DNA of 64,000 bases from Elusimicrobiota bacterium (lineage in GTDB: Bacteria > Elusimicrobiota > Elusimicrobia > Elusimicrobiales > UBA9959), in NCBI GenBank assembly GCA_016209085.1, contig JACQWV010000061.1, positions 21,710-85,709 on the forward strand. Direction: 5' to 3'. A program made the translations under genes and the position numbers. Shown one piece after another: positions 24,088 to 61,048 of this stretch. The notes beneath the pieces are model-generated. The model made no database searches. It was not told the origin of the DNA and saw nothing but the letters and a program-made list of their open reading frames with translations. How positions within the stretch are numbered: position 1 is the first letter of the stretch; every line of letters begins with the position of its first letter.

Positions 24088-25668
24088 TCATTTCATTACT
24101 TTGTTTTCAAAAGCTCTTATTATTTCAGAGAGTTGTTCCGGGTTTTTAGCCGACAGCAGTTTTTTTCTTAGGGTCAGGTTTGATATGAGGCCGGAGAGTT
24201 GAGAGAGGATGTTTAACTGAAAGGTCGGCTCATTGTAAGGAGTCAGTATTATAAATATGAGTTTTACGGGCTGGTTGTCAGGCGAGGGAAAATATATGCC
24301 GTGCTGGCTTTTGCCGATGGAAAGGAGCGGTTTATTCAGGGATTCCAGCCTTGCGTGGGGGAAAGCGGTCTGGTGTCCGAGAGCGGTTGAAAAATTCGTT
24401 TCCCTTTTTATTATGGCGTTTACGGCCGCTTCTTTGTCAAACATGGGATACGAAGCATGCAGTCTGGCAGCGAGATATTTTATCGTCTCAAATCTGCCTG
24501 TGGCTCCTGTGGCGTCAAGATTCAGCTCTAAGGCTTCTTTTACCAGTATCCTGCTCAGAAGTATCGGCGGGGCTTTTTCAAATTCGTCCCTGATTTCCCC
24601 TGCCAGTTCTTCAAGCAGGTCTTCCATTGTAAGAAGGCCTGTGATTTCTCCTCTGGAATTTTTGACCAGAGCTATCTGTATGCGTTTTTCCTGTAATTCC
24701 CTGAGCGCTCTTTCGGCTGAAATATCCTCTGATATGGAATGAATTTCCCTCTGGAGTTTTTCAATATCCGGAACAGCGCCTCCGGCGCCCCATGTGCCGG
24801 AGGCTATGCCGACGGCCGGGTTCTCGCGCTTTAACTCTAAGTCTAAAAACGACAGGGATATGTCCTTGAAATGAATAAAGCCGAAAATATCTTCCGGGGA
24901 TGCGCGAGCCAGAGGATATCTGGAAAGTTTCTTTTCTTTTATTATGCTGAGGTTTTCAATCCACGGTTTATCCGCCGAGAGATATACTATGGAATTTTTG
25001 GGAGTCATTATTTCTTTGACCTTGGTGCGGCCGAAGTCAAAAAGATTTTCAAACATCATGAGTCTGCCCAGGGATATTCTCCCGTGCTCCTGGGACTGGC
25101 CGAGAATCATTCTGAGCTCTTCTTCGGAATGAAGCAGTTCGCTTTCAGACGGTTTTATGCGGAAAAGCTTCAGAATGAAATTGGCGCTTGTGTTTATGAA
25201 AAGCATCGGGTAATAGGCAAGCCGGTAGAATATGTTAAGAGGCACAGCGCACAACAGGGTCGTCTTTTCAGGAGTCATTATGGCCATGTATTTCGGCACC
25301 TGCTCTCCTATTATGACGTGCAGCGCCGTTATTATGATGAATGCCAATCCGAAAGAGATGGAATACGTGATTGTTTTGGATAAAGGGAGGCTGAAATATT
25401 CAAAAAACGGATGTATTAATTTAGCCAGCGCAGGCTCTCCTATCCATCCAAGACCAAGGCTCGCGGCGGTGATGCCTAATTGTATGGCTGAAAGGTATCC
25501 GTCTAAGTGCTGGACCGCGTTTTTTGCGATTTTGGCTATCTGGTTTCCCTTTGAGGACAATTCTTCAAGCCTTGTGAATCTTACTTTGACTATGGCGAAT
25601 TCAGCCAGAACGAAAAAAGCGTTAAGGAGAAGAAAAATTAAAGCGGCAAGGAAGGCAAGATAATCCAT
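24088..25668 (-). CDS. CNNM/CorB-type DUF21-CBS-CBS protein fused to a C-terminal PTS EIIA(Ntr)-like domain
   Basis: Start moved to MDYLAFLAAL because the track start overlaps tRNA-Leu. The N-terminus is a DUF21 TM domain, followed by a CBS pair. The C-terminus (ALGHQTAFPHARLESLNKP...VKLIFIILTP) resembles PtsN/EIIA-2. Confidence 0.7.
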   Translation of the reverse strand: MDYLAFLAALIFLLLNAFFVLAEFAIVKVRFTRLEELSSKGNQIAKIAKNAVQHLDGYLSAIQLGITAASLGLGWIGEPALAKLIHPFFEYFSLPLSKTITYSISFGLAFIIITALHVIIGEQVPKYMAIMTPEKTTLLCAVPLNIFYRLAYYPMLFINTSANFILKLFRIKPSESELLHSEEELRMILGQSQEHGRISLGRLMMFENLFDFGRTKVKEIMTPKNSIVYLSADKPWIENLSIIKEKKLSRYPLARASPEDIFGFIHFKDISLSFLDLELKRENPAVGIASGTWGAGGAVPDIEKLQREIHSISEDISAERALRELQEKRIQIALVKNSRGEITGLLTMEDLLEELAGEIRDEFEKAPPILLSRILVKEALELNLDATGATGRFETIKYLAARLHASYPMFDKEAAVNAIIKRETNFSTALGHQTAFPHARLESLNKPLLSIGKSQHGIYFPSPDNQPVKLIFIILTPYNEPTFQLNILSQLSGLISNLTLRKKLLSAKNPEQLSEIIRAFENKVMK

Positions 25669-25679
25669 AAGGAAATATT

Positions 25680-25761
25680 TGCGCGGGGTGGGACTTGAAC
25701 CCACATGCCTTTCGGCATACGCCCCTCAAACGTACGCGTATACCAATTCCGCCACCCGCGC
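25680..25761 (-). tRNA. tRNA-Leu (anticodon GAG), class II with long variable arm
   Basis: Hand-folded. Acceptor GCGCGGG/CCCGCGC, anticodon stem UACGU/GCGUA, loop UUGAGGG, variable hairpin GCC-GAAA-GGC, T arm GUGGG-UUCAAGU-CCCAC, discriminator A. No encoded CCA. Confidence 0.85.
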
Positions 25762-42043: not shown

Positions 42044-42242
42044 AGAGTTATTATATAAATTTGGTAAAATTATAAATACCTTATAAGAGGGGTTCAGCGA
42101 GCGTGACGCCGTAAGGCTCAAAGCGAGCGACGAAGAAATGGGGGGATTATCCCCCCTTGTAGAGCACCCCGCCGATAACCTTAAGAGGCGGGGCGGGTAA
42201 TCCGCCCGAGCACGAATGTGCGAGGGTGCGACAGGAGATACG

Positions 42243-42812
42243 ATGAAGTACCTTCTTAATGTAAAGAATTTAAACTCTGAATTCGTCCGCGAGATACAGG
42301 CTGAAAGTAAAACCAGGATTCTGCACTGCTACCAGTGCGGCAAATGCTCGGCCGGGTGTCCCATCGCCAATGAAATGGAGTATAAACCCAATCAGATAAT
42401 CAGAATGATTCAGCTTGGAATGGAGGAATCCGTTCTTAAGGCAAATACGATGTGGCTATGCGCCTCCTGCATTACCTGCACGGTCAGGTGCCCCCGCGAA
42501 ATAGACATAGCCGAGATAATGGACGTGCTCAGAAGATACGCGTTTAAAAGAGGAATATTTCCAGCTGCAGTGGCCGACATTCCTGTTTTCAACAGGATAT
42601 TTCTGCGCAACATCAAACTTTTCGGCAGGCTTTACGAACTGGGATTGATAGGTTTTTTTAATCTTTTGACAGGCAATCCTTTCAAGGACGTTTTGCTCGG
42701 GCCTAAAATGTTTTTCAAAGGCAAAATAAACCTTATTCCGGAAAGGATAAAGAACGCTTCCGAGATAAAAGACATTTTTAAACGCTCCGCCGAAATTGAA
42801 CATAGTGATTAA
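42243..42812 (+). CDS. hdrC: heterodisulfide reductase subunit C-like
   Basis: CYQCGKCSAGCP and CASCITCTVRCP ferredoxin-like motifs. Located upstream of hdrB and hdrA. Confidence 0.8.
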   Translation: MKYLLNVKNLNSEFVREIQAESKTRILHCYQCGKCSAGCPIANEMEYKPNQIIRMIQLGMEESVLKANTMWLCASCITCTVRCPREIDIAEIMDVLRRYAFKRGIFPAAVADIPVFNRIFLRNIKLFGRLYELGLIGFFNLLTGNPFKDVLLGPKMFFKGKINLIPERIKNASEIKDIFKRSAEIEHSD

Positions 42813-42935
42813 GTCATTGCGTGATTAAGAGATTAAGCATGAGTGAAAGGTCTAACAGTCTGCTAATAAACTGCATATGAGTAAATCACTGAATCACTTA
42901 CTCACTAAATCACTTATTCATTTAATCACTTATTT
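42804..42935. repeat. GATTAAG/AATCAC word-stutter inverted repeat between hdrC and hdrB
   Basis: The 5' arm is AGTGATTAAGTCATTGCGTGATTAAGAGATTAAGCATGAGTG. The 3' arm is GAGTAAATCACTGAATCACTTACTCACTAAATCACTTATTCATTTAATCACTT. Confidence 0.6.
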
Positions 42936-43811
42936 ATGAAATACGCTTATTATCCCGGCTGTTCCCTTCATTCAACTTCAAGAGAATACGATATGTCCGC
43001 AAAAGAAGTCTCTACCCGGCTCGGCATAGAATTGATTGAAGCGCCTGACTGGGTTTGCTGCGGTGCCACTCCCGCTCACGTCACGATGCACGTACTCTCC
43101 CAGGCCCTGCCTGTCAAAAGCCTGATTAACGCGAAACAGACCGGAGCCGATACCATGGCCGTATGCTGCGCAGCCTGCTTCAGCAGGCTGAAAATAGCGA
43201 ATTACCACGTGCTCAACGACCCAGGGAAGAAAGCAAAAATCAACAGGGCTGTCGGCGCCGAATACAACGGAGAGGTTGCGGTAAAACATCTGCTTGAAAT
43301 CCTTGCAAAAGATTTCGGACTGGAAAATCTGAAGGGGAAAATGACGGCAAAACTTGACGGCTTGAAGGTTGCCTGCTATTACGGCTGCCTTCTGGTCAGA
43401 CCCCGCAAGATAATGCAGTTTGACGATGAAGAAAATCCCACGATAATGGATGCGGTGGTGGAAACCACGGGAGCCAAAACGGTTGACTGGCCTGGCAAGG
43501 TTGAATGCTGCGGGGCAAGTTTCTCTATTACCAAAACCGGGGTCGTCCTGCGGCTGTGCAGGGACATACTTCAGCTTGCATCTGACGCGGGAGCCGAGTG
43601 CATTGCGGTTGCGTGCCCCCTGTGCCAGTCAAATCTTGATTTGCGCCAGCCTGAAGTCAATAAAAAATACGATAAAAAATTTGATATGCCTGTCCTTTAT
43701 TTTACCCAGATTCTCGGTCTGGCCATGGGCATTGATTGGAAAAAATTAGGTCTGGACAAACACATAGTCAGTCCGCTGAAGTTTTTAAAAGGCAAAAATA
43801 TCATCAAATGA
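42936..43811 (+). CDS. hdrB: heterodisulfide reductase subunit B-like (two CCG domains)
   Basis: YYPGCSL and WVCCG motifs, with a second CCG motif ECCGASF. Confidence 0.85.
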   Translation: MKYAYYPGCSLHSTSREYDMSAKEVSTRLGIELIEAPDWVCCGATPAHVTMHVLSQALPVKSLINAKQTGADTMAVCCAACFSRLKIANYHVLNDPGKKAKINRAVGAEYNGEVAVKHLLEILAKDFGLENLKGKMTAKLDGLKVACYYGCLLVRPRKIMQFDDEENPTIMDAVVETTGAKTVDWPGKVECCGASFSITKTGVVLRLCRDILQLASDAGAECIAVACPLCQSNLDLRQPEVNKKYDKKFDMPVLYFTQILGLAMGIDWKKLGLDKHIVSPLKFLKGKNIIK

Positions 43812-45784
43812 AAATCGGCGTTTTCGTATGCCATTGCGGAACCAACATAAGCGCGGTCATTGACGTGCAGAAAGTCGTCAATGACCTTGCAAAGATGCCC
43901 GGCGTTTTTGCAATGGACTATAAATTCATGTGTTCTGACCCGGGCCAGAACATGATTATTTCCGAGATTAAACAAAAAAAGCTTGATGCCGTCATTGTGG
44001 CGGCGTGTTCTCCCTGCCTGCATGAGCTTACTTTCAGGAACACGCTGATAAGGGGGGGGCTGAATCCCTACATGCTTGAAATAGCCAACATAAGGGAGCA
44101 GGATTCATGGGTTCATACTGACAGGGATAAAGCAACTGAAAAGGCAGTCAGACTGGCCAAGATGGCTGTTGCAAAAGCAAAGCGCAACCAGCCGCTGTTC
44201 CCGCAGGAAGTAAGCGTTGAAAAGAGCTGTCTTGTCATAGGAGGCGGAATAGCCGGCATACAGGCCGCGATAGACATATCATCGGCCGGTTATCAGACCG
44301 TTATTGTTGAAAAAGAGCCTTCAATCGGCGGCAAGATGGCGATGTTTGACAAGACTTTTCCGACCCTTGACTGCTCAGCCTGCATACTTACGCCTAAAAT
44401 GGTGCAGGCAAGCCAGTCCAAAAAAGTGAAAATTTATACTTATTCCGAAGTTGAGGAAATAGGGGGGTACGTGGGGAATTTCAATGCCAGAATACGCGTA
44501 AAAGCCAGGTCCGTGAACATGGAAAAATGCACCGGTTGCGGAATCTGCTGGCAGAAATGCCCGGTCAAAGTAAATTCAGAATTTGAGCAGAACCTGGGCC
44601 CGAGAAAAGCAGTGTACGTCCCGTTTGCCCAGGCAGTCCCCAACGTGCCAGTGATTGACTGCGTCAACTGCACTTATTACAGAAGCAAAAGACAGAATCC
44701 GGAAAGCAAGGGTTTGTGCAGAATCTGCGAAAAATTCTGTCCTGCCGGAGCCATTGAATTTGACCAGAAGGATAAAATAATTGAAGAAAAATTCGGCGCC
44801 GTGATAGTGGCGACCGGGTTTTCCGCGTTTGACCACAAGGTTTACGGAGAATACGGGGCAGGCAGATACAAGGACGTGGTTACGGCTCTGCAGTTTGAGC
44901 GCCTGTTGAATTCAAGCGGCCCGACTCAGGGCAAAATTTTAAGGCCGTCAGATTCAAAAGAAGCCAGAACGATAGTATTCGTGCAGTGCGTCGGTTCCAG
45001 GGACGAGTCAAAAGGAGTCCCGTATTGTTCAAGAGTCTGCTGCATGTACACTGCAAAGCAGGCGCTTCTTTTAAAGGAGCACATTCCTGACGCAAATGCC
45101 TATGTTTTTTACATAGACATACGGGCGGCTGGCAAAAACTATGAGGAGTTCATAGAGCGGGTTCAGGATGAATACGGCGTTTTGTACCTGCGCGGAAGGG
45201 TTTCAAAAATTTACAGGACCGGCGACGGCGCTTTGCTTGTGCGGGGAGCGGATACATTGAGCGGCACGCAGGTTGAAATTTCAGCGGACATGGTTGTTCT
45301 GGCCACAGGGCTCGTTTCTAATCCCGAGACCGTAAAATTAGGCCAGATGATAGGAATTCCTTACGATAAAAACAGGTTTTTTACCGAATCCCATCCGAAG
45401 CTGGCGCCTGCAGAAACCCAGACAGCGGGAGTGTTCATCTGCGGCGCATGCCAGTTTCCGAAGGACATTCCTGACAGCGTTGCCCAGGCCGGAGCGGCTG
45501 CTTCAAAAGTCCTGGGGCTTTTTTCACAGGAACATCTCATGCTGGAACCGGTTCTGGCGTGCGTGAACCAGAAAATCTGCAACGGCTGTTTCCACTGCAG
45601 GGCGGTCTGTCCTTATAATGCGATAGATGAGGAAATTCTGAAAGACAAGTCTGTGGTCGCCCGTGTGATTGAAAGCAAATGCCACGGCTGCGGGAACTGC
45701 ATAAGCGCGTGCCCGGTTTCGGCTGTTGATTTGAAGGGTTATACTAACGAACAGATTCTGGAGCAGTTACAGAGTTTAAGGTAG
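43808..45784 (+). CDS. hdrA: heterodisulfide reductase subunit A-like flavoprotein
   Basis: Start moved to MKIGVFVCHCGTNIS (ATGA overlap with hdrB). GGGIAGIQAA is the FAD motif, and several CxxCxxCxxxCP clusters are present. Confidence 0.9.
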   Translation: MKIGVFVCHCGTNISAVIDVQKVVNDLAKMPGVFAMDYKFMCSDPGQNMIISEIKQKKLDAVIVAACSPCLHELTFRNTLIRGGLNPYMLEIANIREQDSWVHTDRDKATEKAVRLAKMAVAKAKRNQPLFPQEVSVEKSCLVIGGGIAGIQAAIDISSAGYQTVIVEKEPSIGGKMAMFDKTFPTLDCSACILTPKMVQASQSKKVKIYTYSEVEEIGGYVGNFNARIRVKARSVNMEKCTGCGICWQKCPVKVNSEFEQNLGPRKAVYVPFAQAVPNVPVIDCVNCTYYRSKRQNPESKGLCRICEKFCPAGAIEFDQKDKIIEEKFGAVIVATGFSAFDHKVYGEYGAGRYKDVVTALQFERLLNSSGPTQGKILRPSDSKEARTIVFVQCVGSRDESKGVPYCSRVCCMYTAKQALLLKEHIPDANAYVFYIDIRAAGKNYEEFIERVQDEYGVLYLRGRVSKIYRTGDGALLVRGADTLSGTQVEISADMVVLATGLVSNPETVKLGQMIGIPYDKNRFFTESHPKLAPAETQTAGVFICGACQFPKDIPDSVAQAGAAASKVLGLFSQEHLMLEPVLACVNQKICNGCFHCRAVCPYNAIDEEILKDKSVVARVIESKCHGCGNCISACPVSAVDLKGYTNEQILEQLQSLR

Positions 45785-45834
45785 CGGCGGGTGTAAACCC
45801 GCAAGGTAGGCAAATGTAAATTCGCACTAAATTT

Positions 45835-46263
45835 ATGGAAGAGAAAAAAGAAAAAAACGGATTTGAGCCGCGTCTTGTCGGGATTTTGTGCAGATGGTGC
45901 TCTTATCAGGGAGCGGACCTTGCAGGCACAAGCAGGCTGAAATACGAACCCAATATGACGGTTCTGCGGGTGCCCTGTTCCGCGCGCATGAGCCCTTTGT
46001 TTCTGATGAAGGGTTTGACCAGCGACATTGACGGGATATTGTTTTCAGGGTGCCATCCCGGGGACTGCCATTACATATCCGGCAACATGAACGCAAGGCG
46101 GAGGTTCGTTATATTCAAAAAGCTACTTGAATTTGCAGGCATGGAGCCGGAGAGAATTCAGATGTCATGGTGCTCGGCCAGCGAAGACAAAAAATGGGCG
46201 GATATAGTTGATTCGGTGACAATAGAGGTGAAAAAAACAGGACCCAATAATAAATTTAAATGA
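45835..46263 (+). CDS. mvhD: MvhD/FlxD-like iron-sulfur protein
   Basis: ILCRWCSYQGADLAG...LRVPCSARM...GCHPGDCHY. Confidence 0.85.
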   Translation: MEEKKEKNGFEPRLVGILCRWCSYQGADLAGTSRLKYEPNMTVLRVPCSARMSPLFLMKGLTSDIDGILFSGCHPGDCHYISGNMNARRRFVIFKKLLEFAGMEPERIQMSWCSASEDKKWADIVDSVTIEVKKTGPNNKFK

Positions 46264-47117
46264 AAGAACTGATAGACAAAGCAAAAGAATTGCTGAAAGA
46301 AAAAAAGGTTGAAACAGTCATCGGCTACAGGGAAATCAGAGGCTGTGTCGTGCCTGCTTATGTTGACAGTCCCTGTGACGCTGACTGTCTTATTTTTGAC
46401 AAAAGATGCGTGTATAATCTTGCGAATTACCTGAAATGGTTTAAAAACAAAAACGTCGCCCTTGTTTTAAAAGGCTGCGACGCAAAGTCCATAAACGTAT
46501 GGCTCCAGGAATTCCAGATTAAGCGCGAGAACATTTTTATAATAGGAGTTGAATGTTACGGCGTTATGAATGAAAAATCCGCAGATGCCGGATTATCCGA
46601 TAAATGCGGGCATTGCGAGGCGCACGTTCCAAATATATACGATGCGGTTATAAAACATCAGGGGGATAAAAAAGAATCTGTTCAAGGAGAACCATTCAAA
46701 GACATTCAGGAATTTGAAAAACTGCCGCACGATGAAAGGTGGGATTTCTGGAAAAAGCAGTTTGAAAAATGCATAAAATGCTATGCGTGCAGGGAAATAT
46801 GTCCCATGTGCTATTGCAAAGAGTGCATAGTTGAACGCAACATCCCGCAGTGGATAATGTCTTCCCCGTCTGTAAAAGGAAATTTTGAATGGAACATGGT
46901 AAGGGCTTTTCACCTGGCCGGCAGGTGCGTTGAATGCGGGGAATGCGAAAGAGCGTGTCCCGTGAACATTCCGCTTATGAAATTAAATAAAAAGCTGATA
47001 AAAGAAATGAAAGAATTATTTGACTATTCAGCGGGACAGAAAGAGGACGTTAAGTCGGCTATTGACGATTTTTATCCAGAAAAAGACATAAAAATAGATG
47101 ATAAGATGATAAGATGA
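46260..47117 (+). CDS. 4Fe-4S dicluster protein, FlxC-like
   Basis: CIKCYACREICPMCYC and CVECGECERACP motifs. Its position in the cluster matches FlxC. Confidence 0.6.
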   Translation: MKELIDKAKELLKEKKVETVIGYREIRGCVVPAYVDSPCDADCLIFDKRCVYNLANYLKWFKNKNVALVLKGCDAKSINVWLQEFQIKRENIFIIGVECYGVMNEKSADAGLSDKCGHCEAHVPNIYDAVIKHQGDKKESVQGEPFKDIQEFEKLPHDERWDFWKKQFEKCIKCYACREICPMCYCKECIVERNIPQWIMSSPSVKGNFEWNMVRAFHLAGRCVECGECERACPVNIPLMKLNKKLIKEMKELFDYSAGQKEDVKSAIDDFYPEKDIKIDDKMIR

Positions 47118-48187
47118 TAAGTGAAATGAAAAAATTTATTATCAGCAAAAATGAGTTAAAGAAAATTCTGGCCGGGATTGTTGCGGAGAATATAAAACTC
47201 ATTGCTCCGGTTTCAAGGGATAACGCTTTTTTTCTGGAAGAGGTCAGTGATGCAGAAAAAATCGCATGGGATTATTCAAATGTCGTAAAACCGGTTAAGG
47301 AGCATATTTTCCCGATGAGGGAAGTTCTTTTGGATTTCGGCAGGGGGACAGATCCCCCTGCACTTGATGAGCCAGAGGCTCGTTCTTCCGGCAAAGAGAA
47401 AAATCCGGCAGGGAACATGCCTCCGGTTAAAGAACAGGTAATATTCGGCTTAAGGCCCTGTGACGCGCGCTCCCTTCTTGTATTGGATAAACCATTCTTG
47501 CAAGAGAAATACGTTGATTCGTATTATAAGGAAAGGCGGGAGAAAACCACCCTTATTGCAATGGCGTGTCTTAATCCGGAAAAAACCTGCCTGTGCTCTT
47601 CTTTTGAAAACGGCGGTCCTTTTTCTTCTGCCGGAAGCGACGTTTTGTGCGTGCAAACCGGGCAGGACGAATTTTTGGTTGAAATCTTGTCTGAAAAAGG
47701 GGAAAAAATATTTAAAAATCCGTCTTTTGCGCAACCTTCCGGAGAAGTTCTGAAAAAGTTGGAAAATCTTAAGGCGGATTCAGAGGCAAAAATCTGCAAG
47801 GCCCTTAAAGTTCCTGAAAACCTGCGGGAGCTTTTTGAAGCAGGTACTTGGGAAACAGAATCCCTTTCCTGCATTGCGTGCGGAATCTGCAGGTATCTGT
47901 CAGCCACCTGCTATTGCTTCAACATTACGGACGAGTTTGAACAGCGTCTCAGGTACTGGATACCGTGCAGTTTTAAAAACTACACAAAAATGACTTCAGG
48001 CGAGATTTCCAGGGAGAAAAAAAGCGCAAGATTCAAGCACTGGTATTTTCATAAATTTTCCTATCACAAGGACAATTTCGGGGAATATCTGTGCGTGGGC
48101 TGCGGCAGGTGCATAAAATACTGCCCCGTAAAAATAGATTTTACCGAAGTGCTTGGAAAAATAGGAAACAGCAAACAGGAACAGTGA
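47114..48187 (+). CDS. Fe-S protein, FlxB/AsrA/HydB-like
   Basis: FGLRPCDARS, CIACGICRYLSATCYC and CVGCGRCIKYCP motifs. The start may instead be 47126. Contains an in-frame repeat at 47339..47392. Confidence 0.6.
   Translation: MISEMKKFIISKNELKKILAGIVAENIKLIAPVSRDNAFFLEEVSDAEKIAWDYSNVVKPVKEHIFPMREVLLDFGRGTDPPALDEPEARSSGKEKNPAGNMPPVKEQVIFGLRPCDARSLLVLDKPFLQEKYVDSYYKERREKTTLIAMACLNPEKTCLCSSFENGGPFSSAGSDVLCVQTGQDEFLVEILSEKGEKIFKNPSFAQPSGEVLKKLENLKADSEAKICKALKVPENLRELFEAGTWETESLSCIACGICRYLSATCYCFNITDEFEQRLRYWIPCSFKNYTKMTSGEISREKKSARFKHWYFHKFSYHKDNFGEYLCVGCGRCIKYCPVKIDFTEVLGKIGNSKQEQ
47339..47392 (+). repeat. GC-rich multi-hairpin repeat, copy A (intragenic, sense)
   Basis: GGCAGGGGGACAGATCCCCCTGCACTTGATGAGCCAGAGGCTCGTTCTTCCGGC. 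It matches the reverse complement of 61367..61420 at 51 of 54 nt. Confidence 0.9.
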
Positions 48188-48249
48188 ATAAAAGGTAATA
48201 AGGTTATAAGATGATAAGGTGATAAGTAAAAAAGCAGTGGAAATTTATT

Positions 48250-49083
48250 ATGCAGAATATTTATCTGCCTGAACTGGCGAAAATTGAGAAAATAACGGAA
48301 GAAACTCCGGATATAAAGACTTTTGACATAAGTTTTGCCGACGCAGGAGCCAGAGAAAAATTCACTTATCTTCCGGGTCAGTTCATAATGATGTCTGTTT
48401 TCGGCTTCGGAGAAGCGCCGTTCGGCCTTGCTTCTACCCCGGACCGGAAGGGATATTTCCAGTGCAGCATAAAAAAAATGGGAAAAGTAACCAGCGAGAT
48501 ACACAGGCTTGATGCCGGCAATATAGTCGGCATCAGGGGTCCGTACGGCAACGGCTTTCCGGTAAAAGAAATTGAAGGGCAGAGGTTGCTTTTTATCGCC
48601 GGCGGAATAGGTCTTGCCCCTTTGAGGAGCCTTATTTATTACTGTTTTGAAAGAAGAAAAAAATTCCCGGACATAACCATACTTTACGGCGCGAGAACGG
48701 TTAAGGATCTGGTCTATAAGCCGGAACTGAAAAAATGGCAGGAAGACAAAAGCATAAAAACGGTTTTAACTGTTGACCCGGGCGGCGAAGACAAAAACTG
48801 GACCGGTAAAATCGGGCTGGTGCCTAAGATTCTTGCGGAGATGAACCCTTTTGCTGAAAATACCGCTGTTGTCCTGTGCGGACCTCCGATAATGATAAAG
48901 TTCACGTTTATAGAACTGCTGAGAATGGGTTTCAGAGAAAAACAGGTTATCACCACCCTGGAGCGCACAATGCAGTGCGGCGTAGGGAAGTGCGGACACT
49001 GTTCAATAGACAAATATTACGTGTGCAAAGACGGCCCTGTTTTCAATTACGAGCAGATTAAAACTTTTCTTGAAGAAATTTAA
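48250..49083 (+). CDS. FAD/NAD(P)H oxidoreductase with C-terminal 2Fe-2S site, FlxA/AsrB/HydG-like
   Basis: PGQFIMMS, FIAGGIGLAPLRS, and CGVGKCGHC at the C-terminus. Confidence 0.75.
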   Translation: MQNIYLPELAKIEKITEETPDIKTFDISFADAGAREKFTYLPGQFIMMSVFGFGEAPFGLASTPDRKGYFQCSIKKMGKVTSEIHRLDAGNIVGIRGPYGNGFPVKEIEGQRLLFIAGGIGLAPLRSLIYYCFERRKKFPDITILYGARTVKDLVYKPELKKWQEDKSIKTVLTVDPGGEDKNWTGKIGLVPKILAEMNPFAENTAVVLCGPPIMIKFTFIELLRMGFREKQVITTLERTMQCGVGKCGHCSIDKYYVCKDGPVFNYEQIKTFLEEI

Positions 49084-53747: not shown

Positions 53748-54089
53748 GATAAGTTCCTCCTTGCTTGAGCGGCATTTTTAAAATGCCGCATACTGAACGT
53801 GATTTTTTTGTGTTATTATATCCCGGTACTTTGTGCTAAGTTTCGGAGGTGGGAGAAACTTAACGCGCCCGACTTTCGCCGACTGGCGGAGCGGGACTTC
53901 ACTTCGCAGGTAGGTTTGAGACTTTACGGATACCGGCGAAGCTTGTAAGATACGGAAACTTCTGCTTTAAATTATGATACCAAAAACCGCAAAAATTGTC
54001 AAGTGTTATGGAAAATACTGACATTTTAAAAAAATTTTGACAAGCGAAATCAAAATGAAGTTGTAAATTTGTATAATAAATAAATCAGC

Positions 54090-54272
54090 ATCATTGCGCG
54101 GGGGAATCCTGTGAGAAGCAGGAACTGCCCCGCAACGGTGATACCCTGCATAGTTTAGCGGGGGTAAGTCCGGTCCACCGCGCATGCCTCAAGGCGGTAT
54201 TTCCGCCTACTGTGGCAGGTCTCCGTGGGGAGAAACAGGATAAACCCTGCCTTGCGGAGGCGGGGTTTTTTG
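54090..54272 (+). promoter_or_regulatory. cobalamin riboswitch with intrinsic terminator
   Basis: P1 is GCGCGG...CCGCGC. The aptamer core is GGGAATCCTGTGAGAAGCAGGAACTGCCCCGCAACGGTGA, with a B12-box-like GTAAGTCCGGTCCACCGC. The terminator is CCCTGCC-TTGCGGA-GGCGGGG plus TTTTTT. btuFCD-like genes lie downstream. Confidence 0.8.
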
Positions 54273-54273
54273 A

Positions 54274-54311
54274 TTTACCCCCGCACCAACCCGGTTGGCG
54301 CGGGGGTTTAC
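54274..54311. repeat. 38-bp palindromic element, intergenic copy
   Basis: TTTACCCCCGCACCAACCCGGTTGGCGCGGGGGTTTAC. It lies between the riboswitch terminator and the btuF RBS. Four differences from 32115..32152, all within the stem. Confidence 0.85.
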
Positions 54312-54330
54312 GGCGGGAGAGGAGGAAGAA

Positions 54331-55134
54331 ATGAAAATTCTGATTTTTGTTCTGATGAACTGTATGCCCGGTTTTTCGCAGGAAAAGGAGCAGCGGATTG
54401 TCTCGCTCATGCCGTCTTACACGGAGATAATTTTTGAATTGGGCGCAGGCAGCCGTCTGGCCGGAATTTCTAATTTCTGCAATTATCCTCAGGGAACAGC
54501 CGGCATTGAAAAAATCGGGGATTATTTCACCCCGAACATTGAAAAGATATACTCTATGAGGCCTGATATTGTGTTTGCAGGCAAATGGAAAAATTCAAAA
54601 GCTGTTTCTGCTCTTAAAAACCTGGGGATTAACTTGGTGGAAATTTCCGAGGAGCGCAAAATTGAAGATATTTTCGCGACAATCAGGATCATCGGGAAAA
54701 ACACCGGCTCGGAAAAAAGAGCCGGAATCCTTGTGTCCGGCATGAAAAAGGAGCTCGGTAAAATAAAAAAGTCCTCCAAAAAGACTGCAAAAAGCGTTTA
54801 CGCTGAAATTGACAGGGGATACTGGACCTGCGGAAAAAATTCTTTTATATCGGACGTGATTAAGAAAGCAGGGGGGAAAAACGTCTTTTCCGGCGTTAAT
54901 ATGCCTTATTTCCAGGCTTCATGGGAGGACGTGATAAAGGCAAAGCCGGAAATAGTGGTTTTGATTAATTCGGAAAAAGAGGAATTTCTGAAAAGGCCGC
55001 TCGCGGAGAAAATACCGGCGGTGAAAAGCGGAAAAATAATAACAGGCATTGACAAGGATGTTATTTCAAGGCCCGGCCCGCGCATAATTTCCGTCATAAA
55101 ACAGCTTAAAAAGGAATTTGATGGCAAAAATTAA
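54331..55134 (+). CDS. btuF: periplasmic cobalamin/siderophore-binding protein of an ABC importer (BtuF-like)
   Basis: Start moved to the ATG after GGAGGAAG (MKILIFVLMNC). RIVSLMPSYTEIIFELG is a class III SBP motif. It is under a cobalamin riboswitch. Confidence 0.75.
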   Translation: MKILIFVLMNCMPGFSQEKEQRIVSLMPSYTEIIFELGAGSRLAGISNFCNYPQGTAGIEKIGDYFTPNIEKIYSMRPDIVFAGKWKNSKAVSALKNLGINLVEISEERKIEDIFATIRIIGKNTGSEKRAGILVSGMKKELGKIKKSSKKTAKSVYAEIDRGYWTCGKNSFISDVIKKAGGKNVFSGVNMPYFQASWEDVIKAKPEIVVLINSEKEEFLKRPLAEKIPAVKSGKIITGIDKDVISRPGPRIISVIKQLKKEFDGKN

Positions 55135-56062
55135 ACTAACGATTCTTATCCTAATATTAATCGCGGCTTCTATGGTTTCCATTATTGCCGGGCCATCAGT
55201 CACTTTTGACAGGGACATTCTTCTGCGCATAAGACTGCCGCGCGTTTTTGAAGCCGTAATAGCAGGCTCCTCGCTTTCGGTCGCCGGAGTCATTTTTCAG
55301 GGCGTGCTTAAAAATCCTCTTTCAGACCCCTACATACTCGGCACTTCAAGCGGGGCTCTGCTGGGAGCGATAATTTGTTTCATGTCCGGCATAGGACATT
55401 CTAACGTTTTGTTTTATCCGGTTGTCGTGTTTTTTGCTTTTGGAGCGACTGTCTCTAGTTATTTCCTGGCAAGAACCGATAAAAACGTTTCAAACGTGAA
55501 TCTGCTTCTTGCCGGCGTGGTCGTAAGCACTTTTCTGACCGCTCTGGTTATAGCTTATTTAACGCTCAACAGGGAGAATGCTTTGAATATCTTTTCTTTC
55601 GTAATGGGAGGATTTTACCAGACCGACAAGACCGTGCTGGCCGTTGCCTTTGTGTTTTCCATGGCAGGGATAATTACAGCCGGAATTTTATCCCGTTATC
55701 TGGATGTAATGTCTTTAGGCGACGAGAAAGCGGTTCAATTAGGGCTTGACGCAAATAAAATAAAATTTATTTTTTTCGGCCTGGCCGCGTTGATTACCGG
55801 ATGCGCCGTTTCCGTTTCAGGGACGATCGGTTTCGTGGGGCTGCTGGTTCCGCACGTCGCAAGGCTGATTTTCGGTCCCGCTCATTTGAGACTTCTGCTT
55901 GTATCCGGCATCGGAGGAGCGGTTTTTCTGATTCTTGCGGACTGCATAGCCAGAAGCGTGTTTTCACCGGCTGAACTGCCTGTGGGCATAATCACTGCTC
56001 TCAGCGGAGCCCCTTTTTTCCTGTGGCTTTTGCGCCGCAGCCGCGCTAACGCCAGCGAGTAG
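55121..56062 (+). CDS. btuC: FecCD/BtuC-family ABC permease
   Basis: RLPRVFEAVIAGSSLSVAGVIFQGVLKNPLSDPYILGTSSGA is the FecCD signature region. Confidence 0.85.
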   Translation: MAKIKLTILILILIAASMVSIIAGPSVTFDRDILLRIRLPRVFEAVIAGSSLSVAGVIFQGVLKNPLSDPYILGTSSGALLGAIICFMSGIGHSNVLFYPVVVFFAFGATVSSYFLARTDKNVSNVNLLLAGVVVSTFLTALVIAYLTLNRENALNIFSFVMGGFYQTDKTVLAVAFVFSMAGIITAGILSRYLDVMSLGDEKAVQLGLDANKIKFIFFGLAALITGCAVSVSGTIGFVGLLVPHVARLIFGPAHLRLLLVSGIGGAVFLILADCIARSVFSPAELPVGIITALSGAPFFLWLLRRSRANASE

Positions 56063-56129
56063 TTGCAGAAATTGCCCGACTCTTATGACTTGAGACCTGA
56101 GACTTGAGACTTGAGACTTGTGACTAACT

Positions 56130-56894
56130 ATGCCTGTTCTTGAAGTCAAAAATCTGAGTTTCGGATATAACGGCGCCGGGGTGTTGAAAAACGTTTCTTT
56201 TTCACTGGATAAAGGGGACTTTACCGGGATTTTGGGACACAACGGGTCCGGAAAATCAACCCTGCTTAAAATTATAAGCGGGATTTTAACGTCAGATTCA
56301 GGAGCGATTCTTTTAAACGGCAAACCGGTTTTATCCTATTCCAGACAGGAAACAGCGCGGCTGATAGGCCATGTGCCGTCCGAGATATTCGTGCCTTATG
56401 AGTTCACTGTTTTTGAGACCGTATTAATGGGAAGGTCCCCTTATCTGAATTGGTGGCAGGGCTACGGCAGGAGGGATTTTATAAAAACCCATGAGGTTCT
56501 TGAAAGAGCCGGAATTTCACATCTTAAAAACAGACATTTGAATTCTCTTTCAAGCGGGGAAAAACAGCTGGTTTTCATTGCCCAGGCTCTGGCCCAGGAG
56601 CCGGAAATTTTGATTCTTGACGAACCTACTTCTCACCTGGACATAAACCATAAAATAGAGATTTTTGCTCTTCTGTCGGGACTGATAAAAGAAAAAGGCA
56701 TATCCGTAATCGTGGTCACTCATGATTTGAATCTGGCGGCGGGTTATTGCAATAAAATTCTTCTGTTAAGAAACGGGGAGACGATATATTTCGGGAATAC
56801 GCGGGAAGGCCTGGAAACTGAGAAAATTTCCAGGTCCTACGGCGTAAAGAACACTGAGGCTCTGAAACGCATTATGAAAGGCCTGACAGCGTAG
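56130..56894 (+). CDS. btuD: ABC transporter ATPase (BtuD/FepC-like)
   Basis: Walker A GHNGSGKST, LSSGEKQ signature, Walker B ILILDEPT. Confidence 0.85.
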   Translation: MPVLEVKNLSFGYNGAGVLKNVSFSLDKGDFTGILGHNGSGKSTLLKIISGILTSDSGAILLNGKPVLSYSRQETARLIGHVPSEIFVPYEFTVFETVLMGRSPYLNWWQGYGRRDFIKTHEVLERAGISHLKNRHLNSLSSGEKQLVFIAQALAQEPEILILDEPTSHLDINHKIEIFALLSGLIKEKGISVIVVTHDLNLAAGYCNKILLLRNGETIYFGNTREGLETEKISRSYGVKNTEALKRIMKGLTA

Positions 56895-56967: not shown

Positions 56968-58263
56968 ATGAAAAAATTTATTTACATTCTACCCCTGCTG
57001 GTTGGTTTCAATTTCAACGTTTTTTCAGGCCCGGCTTCTGAAAATCCGATTCAGCCTGCTGTTTCGGCCGTTCGTATAACTCACGGCACCGATTGCGGAC
57101 AATGCCGCCCTCTTCCGGAAGAGCTTATTTCCGGGATATCAGGCAATTTCGGCCTCTCCGCCGAAGGCGGACAATTTAATGTTTCTGCGCCGGCTGAAAT
57201 CCCCGGTGTTGAGACCCTGACGCCCCAGCCTTCTTTTGCAAAAACAGATTTTTCCGGCATATACGATTATTATTTCGGCTATATCAACGAGATGATTGTA
57301 AAAGCGATTGACGCCTCCCAGAAATCCTTTGAGGGCGCGGTATACAGCATTACCATGAAGGACATTCCTGACGCTCTCATAAAAGCCAAGGAAAGGGGAA
57401 TCAAGGTGCGGCTTATAATAGACGAAGCGCACATTTATCCGAGAATGGACGCGCAGATAAAAAAACTTATTAATGCGGGAATAGACCTAAGGTCGCTTCG
57501 CGGGACCAGAACTTACGGCGTAATGCACAACAAAATCACGATACACGACGGCGAGCTCGTCACCGTGGGCTCTTATAACTGGACGTTTGGCGCTACTTTT
57601 TCAAACTATGAAAATGCGCTGGTGTTGCGCCATCCCATTTATGTTACCGGCTATAATAAATACTGGGACTGGATGTGGTCAAAAGCCAGAAAACTTTCCG
57701 ATGGACCTTCGCCCGAAGTGCCGGAGGGGCATTACGGGACTCCGCCCCAGGACACCAAGCCCATAATGAATCTGAACGGCACTCCTGTGCCGGCGTATCT
57801 TTTCTCCCCCGGCTCTACTTCTCAGGAAAGGCTTGCCAAGATTATAGATTCCGCAAAAGGCTCTATAGACGCTTTGACTTACACCTTTTCTTCAAAAGTT
57901 CTTGCGGATGCGTTAATCAACGCCAAAAAAAGAGGGCTCAAAGTGAGATTTCTGATAGACAAGAACAGGGGCAAGGAATCCGTAATGACCAAGTATCTTT
58001 TTGACAACGGGGTGGAAATGAAATGGGGGATAGGCAGAAACGGCAAAGGCGCCCTGCACAGCAAATTCGCCATACTGGACGGAGCTCTTCTGGAAACAGG
58101 CTCTTTCAACTGGACCGAGAACGCGAGCATCAATTCTTTTGAAAACATGGTTTTTGTAAACGATACCAAGGTGCTAAAAGCCTATCAGACAAAATACGAC
58201 ACTCTTTTTACCGGCGCGGAAGTTCCCACTGCTGCAGATTTTACAATAGAGCCTGCCGAGTAG
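56968..58263 (+). CDS. secreted phospholipase D-superfamily protein with two HKD motifs
   Basis: Signal peptide. HNKITIHDGELVTVGSYNWT and HSKFAILDGALLETGSFNWT. Confidence 0.8.
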   Translation: MKKFIYILPLLVGFNFNVFSGPASENPIQPAVSAVRITHGTDCGQCRPLPEELISGISGNFGLSAEGGQFNVSAPAEIPGVETLTPQPSFAKTDFSGIYDYYFGYINEMIVKAIDASQKSFEGAVYSITMKDIPDALIKAKERGIKVRLIIDEAHIYPRMDAQIKKLINAGIDLRSLRGTRTYGVMHNKITIHDGELVTVGSYNWTFGATFSNYENALVLRHPIYVTGYNKYWDWMWSKARKLSDGPSPEVPEGHYGTPPQDTKPIMNLNGTPVPAYLFSPGSTSQERLAKIIDSAKGSIDALTYTFSSKVLADALINAKKRGLKVRFLIDKNRGKESVMTKYLFDNGVEMKWGIGRNGKGALHSKFAILDGALLETGSFNWTENASINSFENMVFVNDTKVLKAYQTKYDTLFTGAEVPTAADFTIEPAE

Positions 58264-59425: not shown

Positions 59426-61048
59426 ATGGAAAACCAAGAAAAAGGCTACCTCGCCCTTGTTTTGCACGCTCACCTTCCTTTTATCCGTCATCCCGAGTAC
59501 GAGGATTTTCTGGAAGAGGACTGGTTTTTTGAAGCAATGACGGAAACCTACATCCCGTTGCTTGACATTTATGAAAGGCTTACCAGGGAAAACATAGATT
59601 TCAGAATAACCATGTCCCTTACCCCGCCGCTGTGCGCGATGATGACCGACGAGCTTTTGCGCGAGAGATTCAGGAACTATCTGTACCAGCGCGTAGAACT
59701 TTCCGAAAAAGAAACCGTAAGATTAAGAAATACCCAGTTCTACGAATCCGCAAAGATGTATGAGGGAAAGTTCAAAAGGATACGGGAGCTTTACCAGGAT
59801 TACTACGGGGAGAACATTCTCAACGGCTTTAAAAAATTCCAGGACATGGGAAAACTGGAAATAATAACCTGCGGCGCCACGCACGGGTTTCTTCCCCTGC
59901 AGGTAAAAAAAGAAGCCGTCCACGCGCAGGTTAAAACCGCGGCGGACGACTACAGGAGATGCTTCGGCAGAAATCCCAGAGGAATATGGCTTGCGGAATG
60001 CGCTTACAACCCGGGAGACGACGCGTATCTCAAGACCAGCGGCATAAGGTATTTTTTCCTTGAAACCCACGGCATAATTTACGGAAGTCCCAGACCCAGA
60101 TACGGGGTTTACGCTCCGGTGTATTGTCCGAGCGGGGTGGCGGCTTTCGGAAGGGACATGGAATCGGCCCATCAGGTATGGAGCGCGGAAATGGGTTATC
60201 CCGGCGACTACAGGTACAGGGAATTTTACAGAGACGTGGGTTATGACCTTGAATACGATTACGTAAAGCCCTACCTGCACTCGGACGGCGTCAGGAGAAA
60301 CATCGGCATAAAATATTACAAAATAACCGGCAGGGTTCCGTTAAGCGAAAAGGCTCCTTACAATCCGTGGGAGGCTAAGGAAACCGCCGCTGGGCATGCG
60401 GGCAATTTTATGTTCAACAGGGAAAGACAGATAGAACATCTTTACGGATTTTTGGGAAGGAAGCCAATACTCGTTTCAATGTACGACGCCGAGTTGTTCG
60501 GCCACTGGTGGTATGAAGGCCCGGATTTTATAGAATACCTGTTCAGAAAGATTCATTACGACCAGAAGACCATAAAACTCATAACCCCGAGCGAATATCT
60601 CCAGATTCAGCCCGATAACCAGGTGATACAGCCCTCAATGTCTTCATGGGGGGATAAAGGCTACAACGAGGTTTGGCTGAACGGCACGAACGACTGGATG
60701 TACAGGCACCTTCACAAAGCGGTTGAAAGAATGATTGAAATGGCAAATAAATTTCCGGATGTCGACGGCGTTCTGAAGAGGGCTTTGAATCAGTGCGCAA
60801 GGGAGATATTTCTTGCCGCTTCTTCGGACTGGGCTTTTCTTATGACGGTCGGCACTGCCAAGACGTATTCCACAAAAAGGTTCGTGGACCACGTACACCG
60901 TTTTTTCGCTCTCCACGGCCAGATAATGTCAAATTCAATAGATGAGAATTTTCTGAAAGACATTGAATGGAAGGATAACGTTTTTCCCGCCATTGACTAC
61001 CGGGTTTATTCCTCAACCCGCGCACCCGATAATATCTTTACCAGGTAG
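59426..61048 (+). CDS. GH57 1,4-alpha-glucan branching enzyme (DUF1957 type)
   Basis: GYLALVLHAHLPFIRHPE, EEDWFFEAMTETYIPLL, CGATHGFLP and DAELFGHWW. Confidence 0.85.
   Translation: MENQEKGYLALVLHAHLPFIRHPEYEDFLEEDWFFEAMTETYIPLLDIYERLTRENIDFRITMSLTPPLCAMMTDELLRERFRNYLYQRVELSEKETVRLRNTQFYESAKMYEGKFKRIRELYQDYYGENILNGFKKFQDMGKLEIITCGATHGFLPLQVKKEAVHAQVKTAADDYRRCFGRNPRGIWLAECAYNPGDDAYLKTSGIRYFFLETHGIIYGSPRPRYGVYAPVYCPSGVAAFGRDMESAHQVWSAEMGYPGDYRYREFYRDVGYDLEYDYVKPYLHSDGVRRNIGIKYYKITGRVPLSEKAPYNPWEAKETAAGHAGNFMFNRERQIEHLYGFLGRKPILVSMYDAELFGHWWYEGPDFIEYLFRKIHYDQKTIKLITPSEYLQIQPDNQVIQPSMSSWGDKGYNEVWLNGTNDWMYRHLHKAVERMIEMANKFPDVDGVLKRALNQCAREIFLAASSDWAFLMTVGTAKTYSTKRFVDHVHRFFALHGQIMSNSIDENFLKDIEWKDNVFPAIDYRVYSSTRAPDNIFTR

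Follow-up and report, generated by a model that had tools for sequence, protein, structure and literature searches.

Does a GC-rich, hairpin-forming block that is read in frame within a bacterial Fe-S protein gene belong to the protein's own history, or is it mobile DNA that has settled in the coding sequence? The question arises in the 64,000-nt stretch of an Elusimicrobiota contig (JACQWV010000061.1) analyzed here, hereafter the window, in which the initial annotation had proposed a dispersed palindromic element that colonizes open reading frames (ORFs) in the manner of the Rickettsia palindromic elements (RPEs). Gaps in homologous proteins and the reproduced nucleotide identity between copies support that proposal, and we consider it likely, with a probability of roughly 0.8, that the block belongs to a family of mobile DNA elements which are non-autonomous, form hairpins, have spread within the genome of a single Elusimicrobia MAG (locus tag HY746) and survive in protein genes. 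Its insertions are lineage-specific, and the family is dispersed and multi-copy, with members in both orientations, in five frames, in protein loops and, in one case, nested.

A 51-nt insertion in the Fe-S protein gene

The block that raised the question, copy A (47340-47390, + strand), is a 51-nt type-1 cassette lying sense to a Fer4_22 gene (47114-48187) for a 357-aa protein. The DNA of one relative (L004), the only one from which a DNA-level empty site was obtained and for this copy only, is uninterrupted at the corresponding position, and copy A is therefore a 51-nt in-frame insertion, the boundary of which has up to 5 nt of play, CGGCA being present at both ends. The longer span of 47337-47413 first assigned to the element was not upheld. 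The 8-nt direct repeat CGGCAGGG described at 47338 and 47406 is present, but its supposed bearing on the element boundaries did not survive, as the second repeat copy (47406) lies in host sequence 16 nt past the insertion and marks no boundary of the element. The 68-nt spacing of this repeat, once seen as an obstacle to explaining how the frame was preserved, is irrelevant; because the insert is 51 nt long, the frame is kept without special explanation. As anticipated, the insert reads in frame as 17 extra residues, GRGTDPPALDEPEARSS, and the alignment of homologues that had been called for identified these residues as lineage-specific, since they are missing from 13 of 13 homologues, including relatives with 76% and 66% identity.

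Within copy A, hairpin 1 (47340-47361) is followed by an invariant 24-nt core (47361-47384), which contains the GAGCC/GGCTC hairpin (47369-47381), and then by the tail CTTCCG. Both hairpins that had been proposed form in the computed DNA fold, which for the 51-nt insert reaches -16 kcal/mol (z -5.3), a stability equaled by 0 of 200 shuffles, and the block is indeed richer in GC than its flanks (63% versus 41%). In the AlphaFold model of the 357-aa protein, residues 78-101 are predicted as coil with pLDDT <50. Outside the insert segments, the models of this protein and of the 873-aa protein described below are reasonably confident.

Two composite copies in a GH57/DUF3536 gene

The match claimed for copy A some 14 kb away is real: BLASTN pairs 47339-47392 with 61367-61420 read in reverse complement, 51 of 54 nt being identical (94.4%, E 2.7e-15), and the 24-nt core CACTTGATGAGCCAGAGGCTCGTT occurs exactly at all three reported places, namely 47361-47384 (+), 61375-61398 (-) and 62089-62112 (+). 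A core of this kind, with 3 mismatches allowed, was contained in 0 of 100 dinucleotide shuffles, and 0 are expected by chance. The picture of the distant copies could be refined, in that those at 61-62 kb are 99-nt composites situated in opposite orientations within one gene, which encodes an 873-aa GH57/DUF3536 protein (61013-63634, minus strand). Copy B (61349-61447, - strand) is sense to this gene and is ordered as a left module, a type-1 cassette, and a right hairpin with a GCTGTTCCG tail; it contributes residues 730-762, AVRITHGTCGRGTEPPALDEPEARCSGRGAAVP, recovered by tblastn as 33 aa at 100% identity. Copy C (62039-62137, + strand) is antisense to the gene and contributes residues 500-532, RNSGAAAEQRASGSSSVGRYATRPPCAASAANG, which interrupt the DUF3536 domain: the Pfam match is broken at residue 501, and the best match of nearly all 150 homologues stops at about residue 500. 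Eight of eight aligned homologues have a 33-column gap at copy B and another at copy C, and the AlphaFold model assigns pLDDT <50 to residues 499-532 (copy C) and 735-757 (copy B).

Additional copies in the window

Copy D (57067-57117, + strand) is a 51-nt variant sense to a gene (56968-58263) for a 431-aa PLD-like protein, where it spans residues 34-50, directly after the signal peptide. It opens with the same left module as copy B, GCCGTTCGTATAACTCACGGCAC (24 nt exact; chance expectation 0), and continues with a different hairpin and the CTTCCG tail; its assignment to the family is based on this nucleotide match and on an nhmmer E of 6.6e-6. Copy E (24769-24816, - strand), located through nhmmer matches to the left (L) and right (R) modules plus motif searches, is a 48-nt type-2 cassette sense to a 538-aa CNNM/CBS/EIIA gene (24088-25704, minus strand). 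It consists of the left and right modules without the type-1 core and contributes AVGIASGTWGAGGAVP to the linker joining two CBS domains, which is about 20 residues shorter in the PDB homologues 7m1t and 3lv9. Copy F (8123-8166, - strand), antisense to a 331-aa SDR epimerase gene (7969-8964), is probably a further type-2 cassette, GCACCTGGGGCGTCGGAGACGCTGTTCCG, given that it is the top-ranking nhmmer hit for the R module and carries the GCTGTTCCG motif. It reads as about SEQRLRRPRCMGLCDM, with a length of 44-48 nt that reflects an uncertain 5' boundary, and the loop in which it lies varies in length across the SDR family in a PDB alignment. All six members found in the window (A-F) are thus inside ORFs, and the AlphaFold models of the 357-aa and 873-aa proteins place the inserts of copies A, B and C in low-confidence, mostly coil segments or loops.

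Modular architecture and folding of the family

The family is modular, comprising a 51-nt cassette (type 1), a 48-nt cassette (type 2) and, as its commonest unit, a 99-nt composite in which type 1 is housed within type 2; the unit lengths are additive (99 = 48 + 51) and all are divisible by three. Type 1 is built from a hairpin with a covarying 8-bp stem (hairpin 1), the invariant 24-nt core with its GAGCC/GGCTC hairpin, and a single-stranded tail ending in TTCCG, while type 2 runs from GCCGT at its start to GCTGTTCCG at its end, with CGGCACNTGGGG and a hairpin in between. Elements begin with GCCGTTCG or GCAGGG and finish with GCTGTTCCG or CTTCCG. Among five sequences, hairpin 1 displays compensatory two-sided changes in 3 of its 8 pairs and standard pairs in 98.5% of cells, as against 32-49% with slid partners. 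The stem of the right hairpin is GCCGC/GCGGC in copy B, GCGGC/GCCGC in copy C and GCGCC/GGCGC in copy G, a copy from outside the six described above, and family elements have DNA fold z-scores of -5.3 and -3.5. That the frames are open does not go beyond what GC-richness leads one to expect; by our own calculation, chance alone would leave approximately 65% of 17-codon frames open.

The elements have no terminal inverted repeats, as their 5' and 3' ends are not reverse-complementary and the hairpins are internal. Direct repeats of 3-5 nt are found at the junctions of copies A, B, C and E (CGGCA, GGCC, CCGTT and CCGG) and none at copy G. These repeats overlap the element termini and could be target duplications, microhomology, or the outcome of GC...CCG ends meeting a G^G target; across copies A, B, C, E and G and the one empty site, no clear or consistent target-site duplication was found.

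Spread within the MAG and beyond

A peptide search returned 14 more insertions in 12 further unrelated host proteins of the same MAG, so that the known in-frame insertions number at least 20 and are distributed over 17 proteins, all from one GenBank accession series (MBI46556xx-46563xx). This host count is a lower bound because the peptide word index is incomplete, the host P0228 not having been returned by a query that includes an exact 27-aa stretch of it. The search that yielded the further hosts also missed two of the window hosts. The insertions use five reading frames and both orientations and encode unrelated peptides; the family is therefore an entity at the nucleotide level and not a peptide, and a conserved peptide module was rejected as its identity on account of the five unrelated frames. 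In one host (P0227) a 33-aa composite is nested within a 17-aa type-1 copy, which indicates mobility, and GcvPA (P0226) has two inserts, both missing from Thermus GcvPA (1wyt_A).

Scanning of GTDB genomes with a 20-mer produced one true copy (L001), a 51-nt unit located between two genes of a different Elusimicrobia MAG with 64% GC, so that an identical 24-nt core is common to this genome and to the present 44%-GC one. Two 20-mer matches (L002 and L003) were set aside as chance coding matches that have neither hairpin 1 nor the tail. JGI metagenomes gave 0 matches to a 23-mer or a degenerate 22-mer, viral contigs gave 0 matches to the family, and the best matches in plasmid and phage BLAST searches were only at E ~0.8-0.9. 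The family is known from two MAGs.

Proposed mechanism and alternative explanations

A mobile family of this kind would insert in any frame and in either orientation, after which selection would purge those copies that bring stop codons or land in structured parts of the protein. The survivors would be copies that are open and in frame and that lie in surface loops or linkers, predicted to be translated as 16-33 extra residues that differ wholly by frame; GTDPPALDEPEAR is one example of a predicted insert-encoded tryptic peptide. With regard to the means of movement, a structure-conserving hairpin is combined with an adjoining invariant sequence and a 3' tail that stays unpaired, without terminal inverted repeats or a consistent target duplication, and from this combination we tentatively infer, by analogy with REP/RAYT and IS200/IS605 systems, that the elements might be mobilized in trans by an enzyme recognizing single-stranded hairpins. 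A more elaborate scheme is also conceivable, albeit more speculative. In it the cassettes would be substrates of REP/RAYT-like or IS200/IS605-like single-strand transposition whose niche had moved from intergenic to intragenic, and recognition and cleavage would take place at a joint site made up of the covarying hairpin, the core of 24 invariant nt and the unpaired tail TTCCG; nesting would build larger units, transfer would link Elusimicrobia genomes that differ widely in GC, and housekeeping proteins would keep gaining loop peptides.

Spread without a dedicated transposase, through copying during recombination or repair such as microhomology-mediated template switching or gene conversion of hairpin-forming sequences at stalled forks, appears improbable. 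It would be in keeping with junction microhomologies of just 3-5 nt and with a Pfam scan that found no transposase or autonomous partner among ~40 ORFs of the window, and several members are mosaics resembling recombination products (copy D, copy G with a 12-nt deletion, and the P0232 insert with 10 extra residues). However, the ends recur precisely (GCCGT...GTTCCG and GCAGGG...TTCCG), the discrete lengths of 48, 51 and 99 nt recur at approximately 20 unrelated sites, and the core is identical across genomes of 44% and 64% GC, for which reason recognition by an enzyme fits better than random template switching.

A covarying hairpin beside an invariant core is also a typical functional-RNA pattern, and folding of copies A and B as RNA gives z-scores between roughly -2.9 and -3.0, which would suit a structured RNA or cis-regulatory mRNA element (a ribozyme, protein-binding site or stability element). 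We judge this very unlikely, since the elements sit in unrelated genes and run either with or against transcription, close relatives live without them, and Rfam offers no match even at E<=10: Rfam 15 at gathering score detected two tRNAs only in the whole window, and at E<=10 the region 61250-62250 gave chance matches only, the best with 19.9 bits where the gathering score is 63.5. There is a likeness to CUGAUGAG, yet the hammerhead GAAA and cleavage site are missing. A hammerhead ribozyme, prompted by CUUGAUGAG, was thus rejected for want of the GAAA motif and of any matching model; a SECIS element was rejected because there is no TGA in frame, and a diversity-generating retroelement because the copies do not differ at adenines in particular.

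We give even less credence to the idea that the segments remain untranslated, whether by ribosomal bypass, as at the T4 gene 60 gap and the Magnusiomyces mitochondrial byp elements, or by mRNA excision. Bypass is unnecessary because the retained copies are all open and multiples of three in length, and among the hosts no copies in stop-containing frames are seen. The flanking codons do match (GGC...GGC at A, GCC...GCC at B, AAC GG...AAC GG at C and CCG...CCG at E) and the hairpin begins at the would-be take-off codon, but element ends meeting their target account for the matching codons, and the putative take-off site has no stop codon after it. An artefact of assembly or binning, with repeats creating chimeras in genes as they often break or mis-join short-read MAGs such as this one, can practically be dismissed, given that every copy is in frame with homologous sequence intact on both sides, that copy G is also present in the independent Logan assembly of SRR12113402, and that another study's MAG holds a copy.

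Significance and comparison with known systems

Translated selfish DNA in housekeeping genes has been regarded as a near-speciality of Rickettsia. The proposed mobile hairpin family described here would be a rare instance of such Rickettsia-like selfish DNA within genes in a new phylum, and a case this dense (6 copies per 64-kb window) in an unrelated, uncultivated phylum suggests a more general outcome of combining a small hairpin element with a gene-dense genome. Its discrete 48-, 51- and 99-nt units, nesting and sharp core could aid in finding the mobilizing enzyme, and the family could serve the study of how proteins acquire new loops. Elements of this sort also break short-read assemblies, inflate apparent protein divergence and yield spurious "shared motifs" across unrelated proteins in MAG annotation.

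Yeast mitochondria harbor mobile, hairpin-forming GC clusters in an AT-richer genome. Together with the coding palindromes of Nematomorpha mitochondria, these resemble the present family as GC-rich hairpins in an AT-richer genome, some tolerated within coding sequence, but both are organellar and of other sequence. The Nematomorpha palindromes, moreover, encode conserved protein regions (PMC8811140, PMC6649704), whereas the present inserts are extra loops. Among MITEs, Coxiella QMITE1, intragenic ERIC and the Anabaena MITEs are likewise small non-autonomous repeats, some of them fused in frame with genes; QMITE1 measures 300-400 bp and comes with inverted repeats, direct repeats of 2-3 nt and promoters of its own (PMC5896051, PMC10969869), while the present cassettes, smaller by a factor of 5-8, lack terminal inverted repeats.

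The REP/REPIN-RAYT and IS200/IS605-derived palindromes come closer in structure, as they are short, GC-rich, imperfect palindromes adjoining conserved sequence, have no terminal inverted repeats or clear target duplication, and keep the stem in structure and not in sequence. REPs are extragenic by definition, with GTAG or CGTC as their head (PMC3733652); in contrast, six of six window copies are intragenic, and the bases in front of hairpin 1 are TTTCG, CTGTG, GGGG or CTCAG.

RPEs, as summarized in PMC10969869 from Ogata et al. (2000, 2002), are elements of ~100-150 bp in obligate intracellular Alphaproteobacteria, with a conserved peptide for each RPE. To the extent covered by that summary, the likeness is considerable: both are dispersed palindromic repeats, multi-copy within one genome and in frame in many unrelated housekeeping genes, here with at least 20 insertions in 17 proteins, and in both the extra peptide segments, which for the present cassettes are predicted translations, fit the host fold. 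The present units differ in their lengths of 48, 51 and 99 nt, which fall outside the RPE range given there, in their richness in GC within a genome of 44% GC, in their modularity and nesting, in their use of five frames, and in their host, a groundwater-type Elusimicrobia MAG. On our best reading, the present family behaves like the RPEs yet is probably unrelated to them, and it differs in length, architecture and host.

Copy A is an insertion in an Fe-S protein gene

The GC-rich hairpin repeat that the initial annotation had described at 47337-47413, as a block in frame in an Fe-S gene, has the sequence reported there and is copy A of the family (47340-47390, plus strand). Its 24-nt core, CACTTGATGAGCCAGAGGCTCGTT, occurs exactly three times in the window, at 47361-47384 (+), 61375-61398 (-) and, as had been claimed, 62089-62112 (+), and not once in 100 shuffles with up to three mismatches allowed. 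BLASTN reproduced the hand alignment of 47339-47392 with the reverse complement of 61367-61420 (51/54 identical, E 2.7e-15). Both hairpins proposed for the 51-nt block form in a DNA fold of -16 kcal/mol (z -5.3; equalled by 0/200 shuffles), and the block is indeed more GC-rich than its flanks (63% vs 41%; whole window, 43.8%).

The host of copy A is a 357-aa Fer4_22 protein, whose gene belongs to an HdrA-MvhD/FlpD-FeS-FeS-FAD/NAD cluster. A database search with this protein recovered the same protein in an NCBI Elusimicrobia MAG and relatives of 76% and 66% identity that are ~25 residues shorter. Alignment with homologues, the check proposed in the initial annotation for lineage specificity, showed that the 17-residue segment GRGTDPPALDEPEARSS is missing from 13 of 13 while the flanks match residue for residue, and Logan contig L004, from the 76% relative, holds the empty site in its DNA, ...GGATTT/TGGTAAA..., where the window reads ...GGATTT[51 nt]CGGCAAA.... 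Because CGGCA stands at both ends, the boundary slides by 5 nt. The 8-nt repeat previously taken as a flank, CGGCAGGG, is present, but its second copy (47406) lies 16 nt past the insert, in host sequence; likewise the frame is kept, but the puzzle drawn from the 68-nt spacing, which is not a multiple of 3, disappears since the insert is 51 nt long and needs no special explanation.

The cluster itself (43736-49083) encodes HdrA-like (682 aa), MvhD/FlpD-like (142 aa), two Fe-S (285 and 357 aa) and FAD/NAD-binding DHODB-type (277 aa) subunits, and its gene order is kept in L004 from the FlpD-like gene onward. Upstream lie a Fer4_8 protein and a CCG-domain (HdrB-like) protein (42216-43811).

The family is built from modular units

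Copies B (61349-61447, minus strand) and C (62039-62137, plus strand) share one host, a minus-strand 873-aa GH57 + DUF3536 gene, in which B is sense and C antisense. A full HMMER search with this protein gave 3839 homologues, and among the best 150 of these nearly all alignments end at about query residue 500; comparison with eight homologues delimits two private 33-residue blocks, 500-532 (C) and 730-762 (B), each exactly 99 nt. The host ORF (61013-63634, minus strand) converges on a 540-aa ORF (59426-61048, plus strand) with a 36-nt 3'-end overlap; immediately upstream there is a DUF4912 gene.

Low-stringency BLAST, motif searches and nhmmer profiles recovered three further members in the window and no others: D (57067-57117) in a PLD-like gene, E (24769-24816) in a CNNM/CBS/EIIA gene and F (~8123-8166) in an SDR epimerase gene, placing 6/6 window copies in ORFs. 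Comparison of the copies resolves units of 51, 48 and 99 nt. Type 1 (51 nt; A and a copy on L001, a contig of another Elusimicrobia MAG) comprises hairpin 1, the core with its GAGCC/GGCTC hairpin and a tail with TTCCG at its end; type 2 (48 nt; E, probably F) runs GCCGT...CGGCACNTGGGG, a hairpin, then GCTGTTCCG; and the composite (99 nt; B and C) is a type 2 split into its two halves with type 1 placed precisely between them. D is the left module of B plus a different hairpin, and G, on Logan contig L005 from the same organism, is a composite shortened to 87 nt by a 12-nt deletion. Every copy with fixed boundaries (A-E, G, L001) has a multiple-of-three length; the 5' boundary of F is uncertain (44-48 nt).

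Host sequence at 47404-47413 (TCCG/GCAGGG), 16 nt downstream of copy A, resembles a type-1 3' end joined to a 5' end and may represent a junction or footprint, or else another target-like site; in the L004 relative this stretch has equal length but unrelated bases. Separately, the intergenic stretch 2545-2680, flanked by a B12-binding radical SAM gene on one side and a glycosyltransferase-like gene on the other, holds near-identical GC hairpins, CCCCCGACTCTGTCGGGGG (~2547-2565) and CCCCCGACTCCTGTCGGGGG (~2619-2638), around a ~53-nt GC-rich spacer; this arrangement may be another kind of small repeat or a structured RNA.

One DNA sequence is read in five frames

The open frames of B and C were translated, concatenated and used as a protein-database query. 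They matched 12 proteins, every one of them from NCBI "MAG: Elusimicrobia bacterium" (locus tag HY746). Accession numbers looked up for four of these hosts form one series with those of the two window hosts, which therefore belong with them to one MAG. The 12 are unrelated: GcvPA (two inserts), DUF438, LysM, TauE/SafE, FecR, cob(I)alamin adenosyltransferase, an AMP-binding enzyme, ThiL and four hypothetical proteins. The MAG holds at least 20 insertions, a lower bound, as the word-indexed protein search missed even the window's own hosts and a second, shorter query returned no match. Assigned by tblastn against element DNA, the inserts use two sense frames, ...PALDEPEAR... (5 copies) and ...HLMSQRLV... 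(2), and three antisense frames, ...EQRASGSSS... (6), ...NEPLAHQV... (3 and the L001 copy) and ...SLWLIKC... (1); the sixth frame, with TGATGA, was not seen among them. Because five unrelated peptides come from one DNA sequence, the conserved entity is the nucleotide sequence and not a protein module.

In P0227, a database protein of this MAG, the insert reads RNNEPLA-[33-aa composite]-HQALGAMPPS, a composite nested inside a type-1 copy; such nesting is a hallmark of mobile DNA. Both inserts of P0226, the GcvPA, are missing from Thermus GcvPA 1wyt_A, and the CBS1-CBS2 linker in PDB CorC/CNNM structures is ~20 residues shorter than the E-bearing linker. The composite insert of P0232, outside the window, has 10 extra residues (PACRSLGAGR) relative to the otherwise equivalent insert of P0233 from the same MAG, suggesting that its left arm contains either an additional small module or an internal duplication.

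AlphaFold models the 357-aa protein with a mean pLDDT of 72; the longest low-confidence segment, 78-101, is a coil between two strands that includes the insert, and two low-confidence segments of the 873-aa model (mean pLDDT 78.6), 499-532 and 735-757, coincide with C and B. The models thus place the inserts in predicted loops or linkers, a location also reported for RPE inserts (PMC10969869). At ~65% GC, chance alone leaves about two thirds of 17-codon frames open, so no special adaptation is required to explain them; the remainder would be accounted for by selection that removes stops and frame-shifting indels.

Beyond this MAG, when one genome was scanned for each GTDB species, a single true copy came to light, that on L001 (MAG X2_MetaBAT.4, 64% GC over the 8 kb read), a 51-nt type 1 whose core is identical and whose hairpin 1 is a third version. 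It (985-1051) fills the ~50 nt that separate an ABC-2 permease gene from the co-directional gene that follows. On the genes' strand its hairpin 1 loop, common to the C, G and L001 subfamily, reads GCTATGCC and would supply the downstream membrane protein (MPPCLRDIAAGLLFF...) with an ATG in frame. Two other scan matches were chance coding matches, and JGI metagenomes, viral contigs, plasmids and phages yielded no family member.

Structure and mobility

Across five type-1 copies, 98.5% of hairpin 1 cells are paired, vs 32-49% with partners slid, and 3/8 pairs change on both sides (CG/UA, AU/CG, CG/GC/UG). The core and 5-bp stem are essentially invariant, with two changes, in G only, and the right-hand hairpin covaries (GCCGC-GGT-GCGGC in B, GCGGC-AGC-GCCGC in C, GCGCC-ATT-GGCGC in G). 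With only five sequences, this covariation is suggestive but does not amount to proof. Since some copies run with transcription and others against it, DNA or a transposition intermediate is a likelier setting than mRNA for the selected structure. The element has no match among Rfam families. Elsewhere in the window, 54075-54211 (+) matches the AdoCbl (cobalamin) riboswitch over the full model (43.1 bits vs a gathering score of 50; E 1.5e-6) directly upstream of a Peripla_BP_2/FecCD/ABC_tran (BtuFCD-like) operon (54295-56894), and is probably a genuine divergent B12 riboswitch missed by the gathering-score scan.

The units insert repeatedly, lineage-specifically, in either orientation, nested and as discrete lengths. 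They have no terminal inverted repeats, their junctions show only 3-5-nt direct repeats overlapping the element termini, and their targets resemble (C/A)G^G(C/A). Substrates of REP/RAYT and IS200/IS605 systems are transposed in single-stranded form, leaving neither inverted repeats nor duplications behind. Since the structure-conserved hairpin, invariant neighbouring sequence and unpaired 3' tail recall such substrates, we tentatively favor, at a probability of roughly 0.3, mobilisation in trans by a REP/RAYT- or IS200/IS605-type enzyme, that is, a single-strand enzyme that would recognise the hairpin. No transposase was found among the window ORFs; the main alternative, copying by template switching free of any transposase, appears improbable.

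Relation to known elements

With six window copies in ORFs and inserts in 12 further proteins, the colonisation of genes without breakage that the initial annotation had likened to RPEs (Rickettsia palindromic elements) holds, and the family appears to be the functional equivalent of the RPE phenomenon, selfish DNA translated within genes. Full-text literature searches found no report of such elements in Elusimicrobia. Classical MITEs are defined by the terminal inverted repeats that this family lacks, and REPs by a GTAG or CGTC head and an extragenic location, neither of which it has. Compared with RPEs, its units are far shorter, modular and nested. The phenomenon itself is known in Rickettsia; its occurrence through such elements in Elusimicrobia appears to be new.
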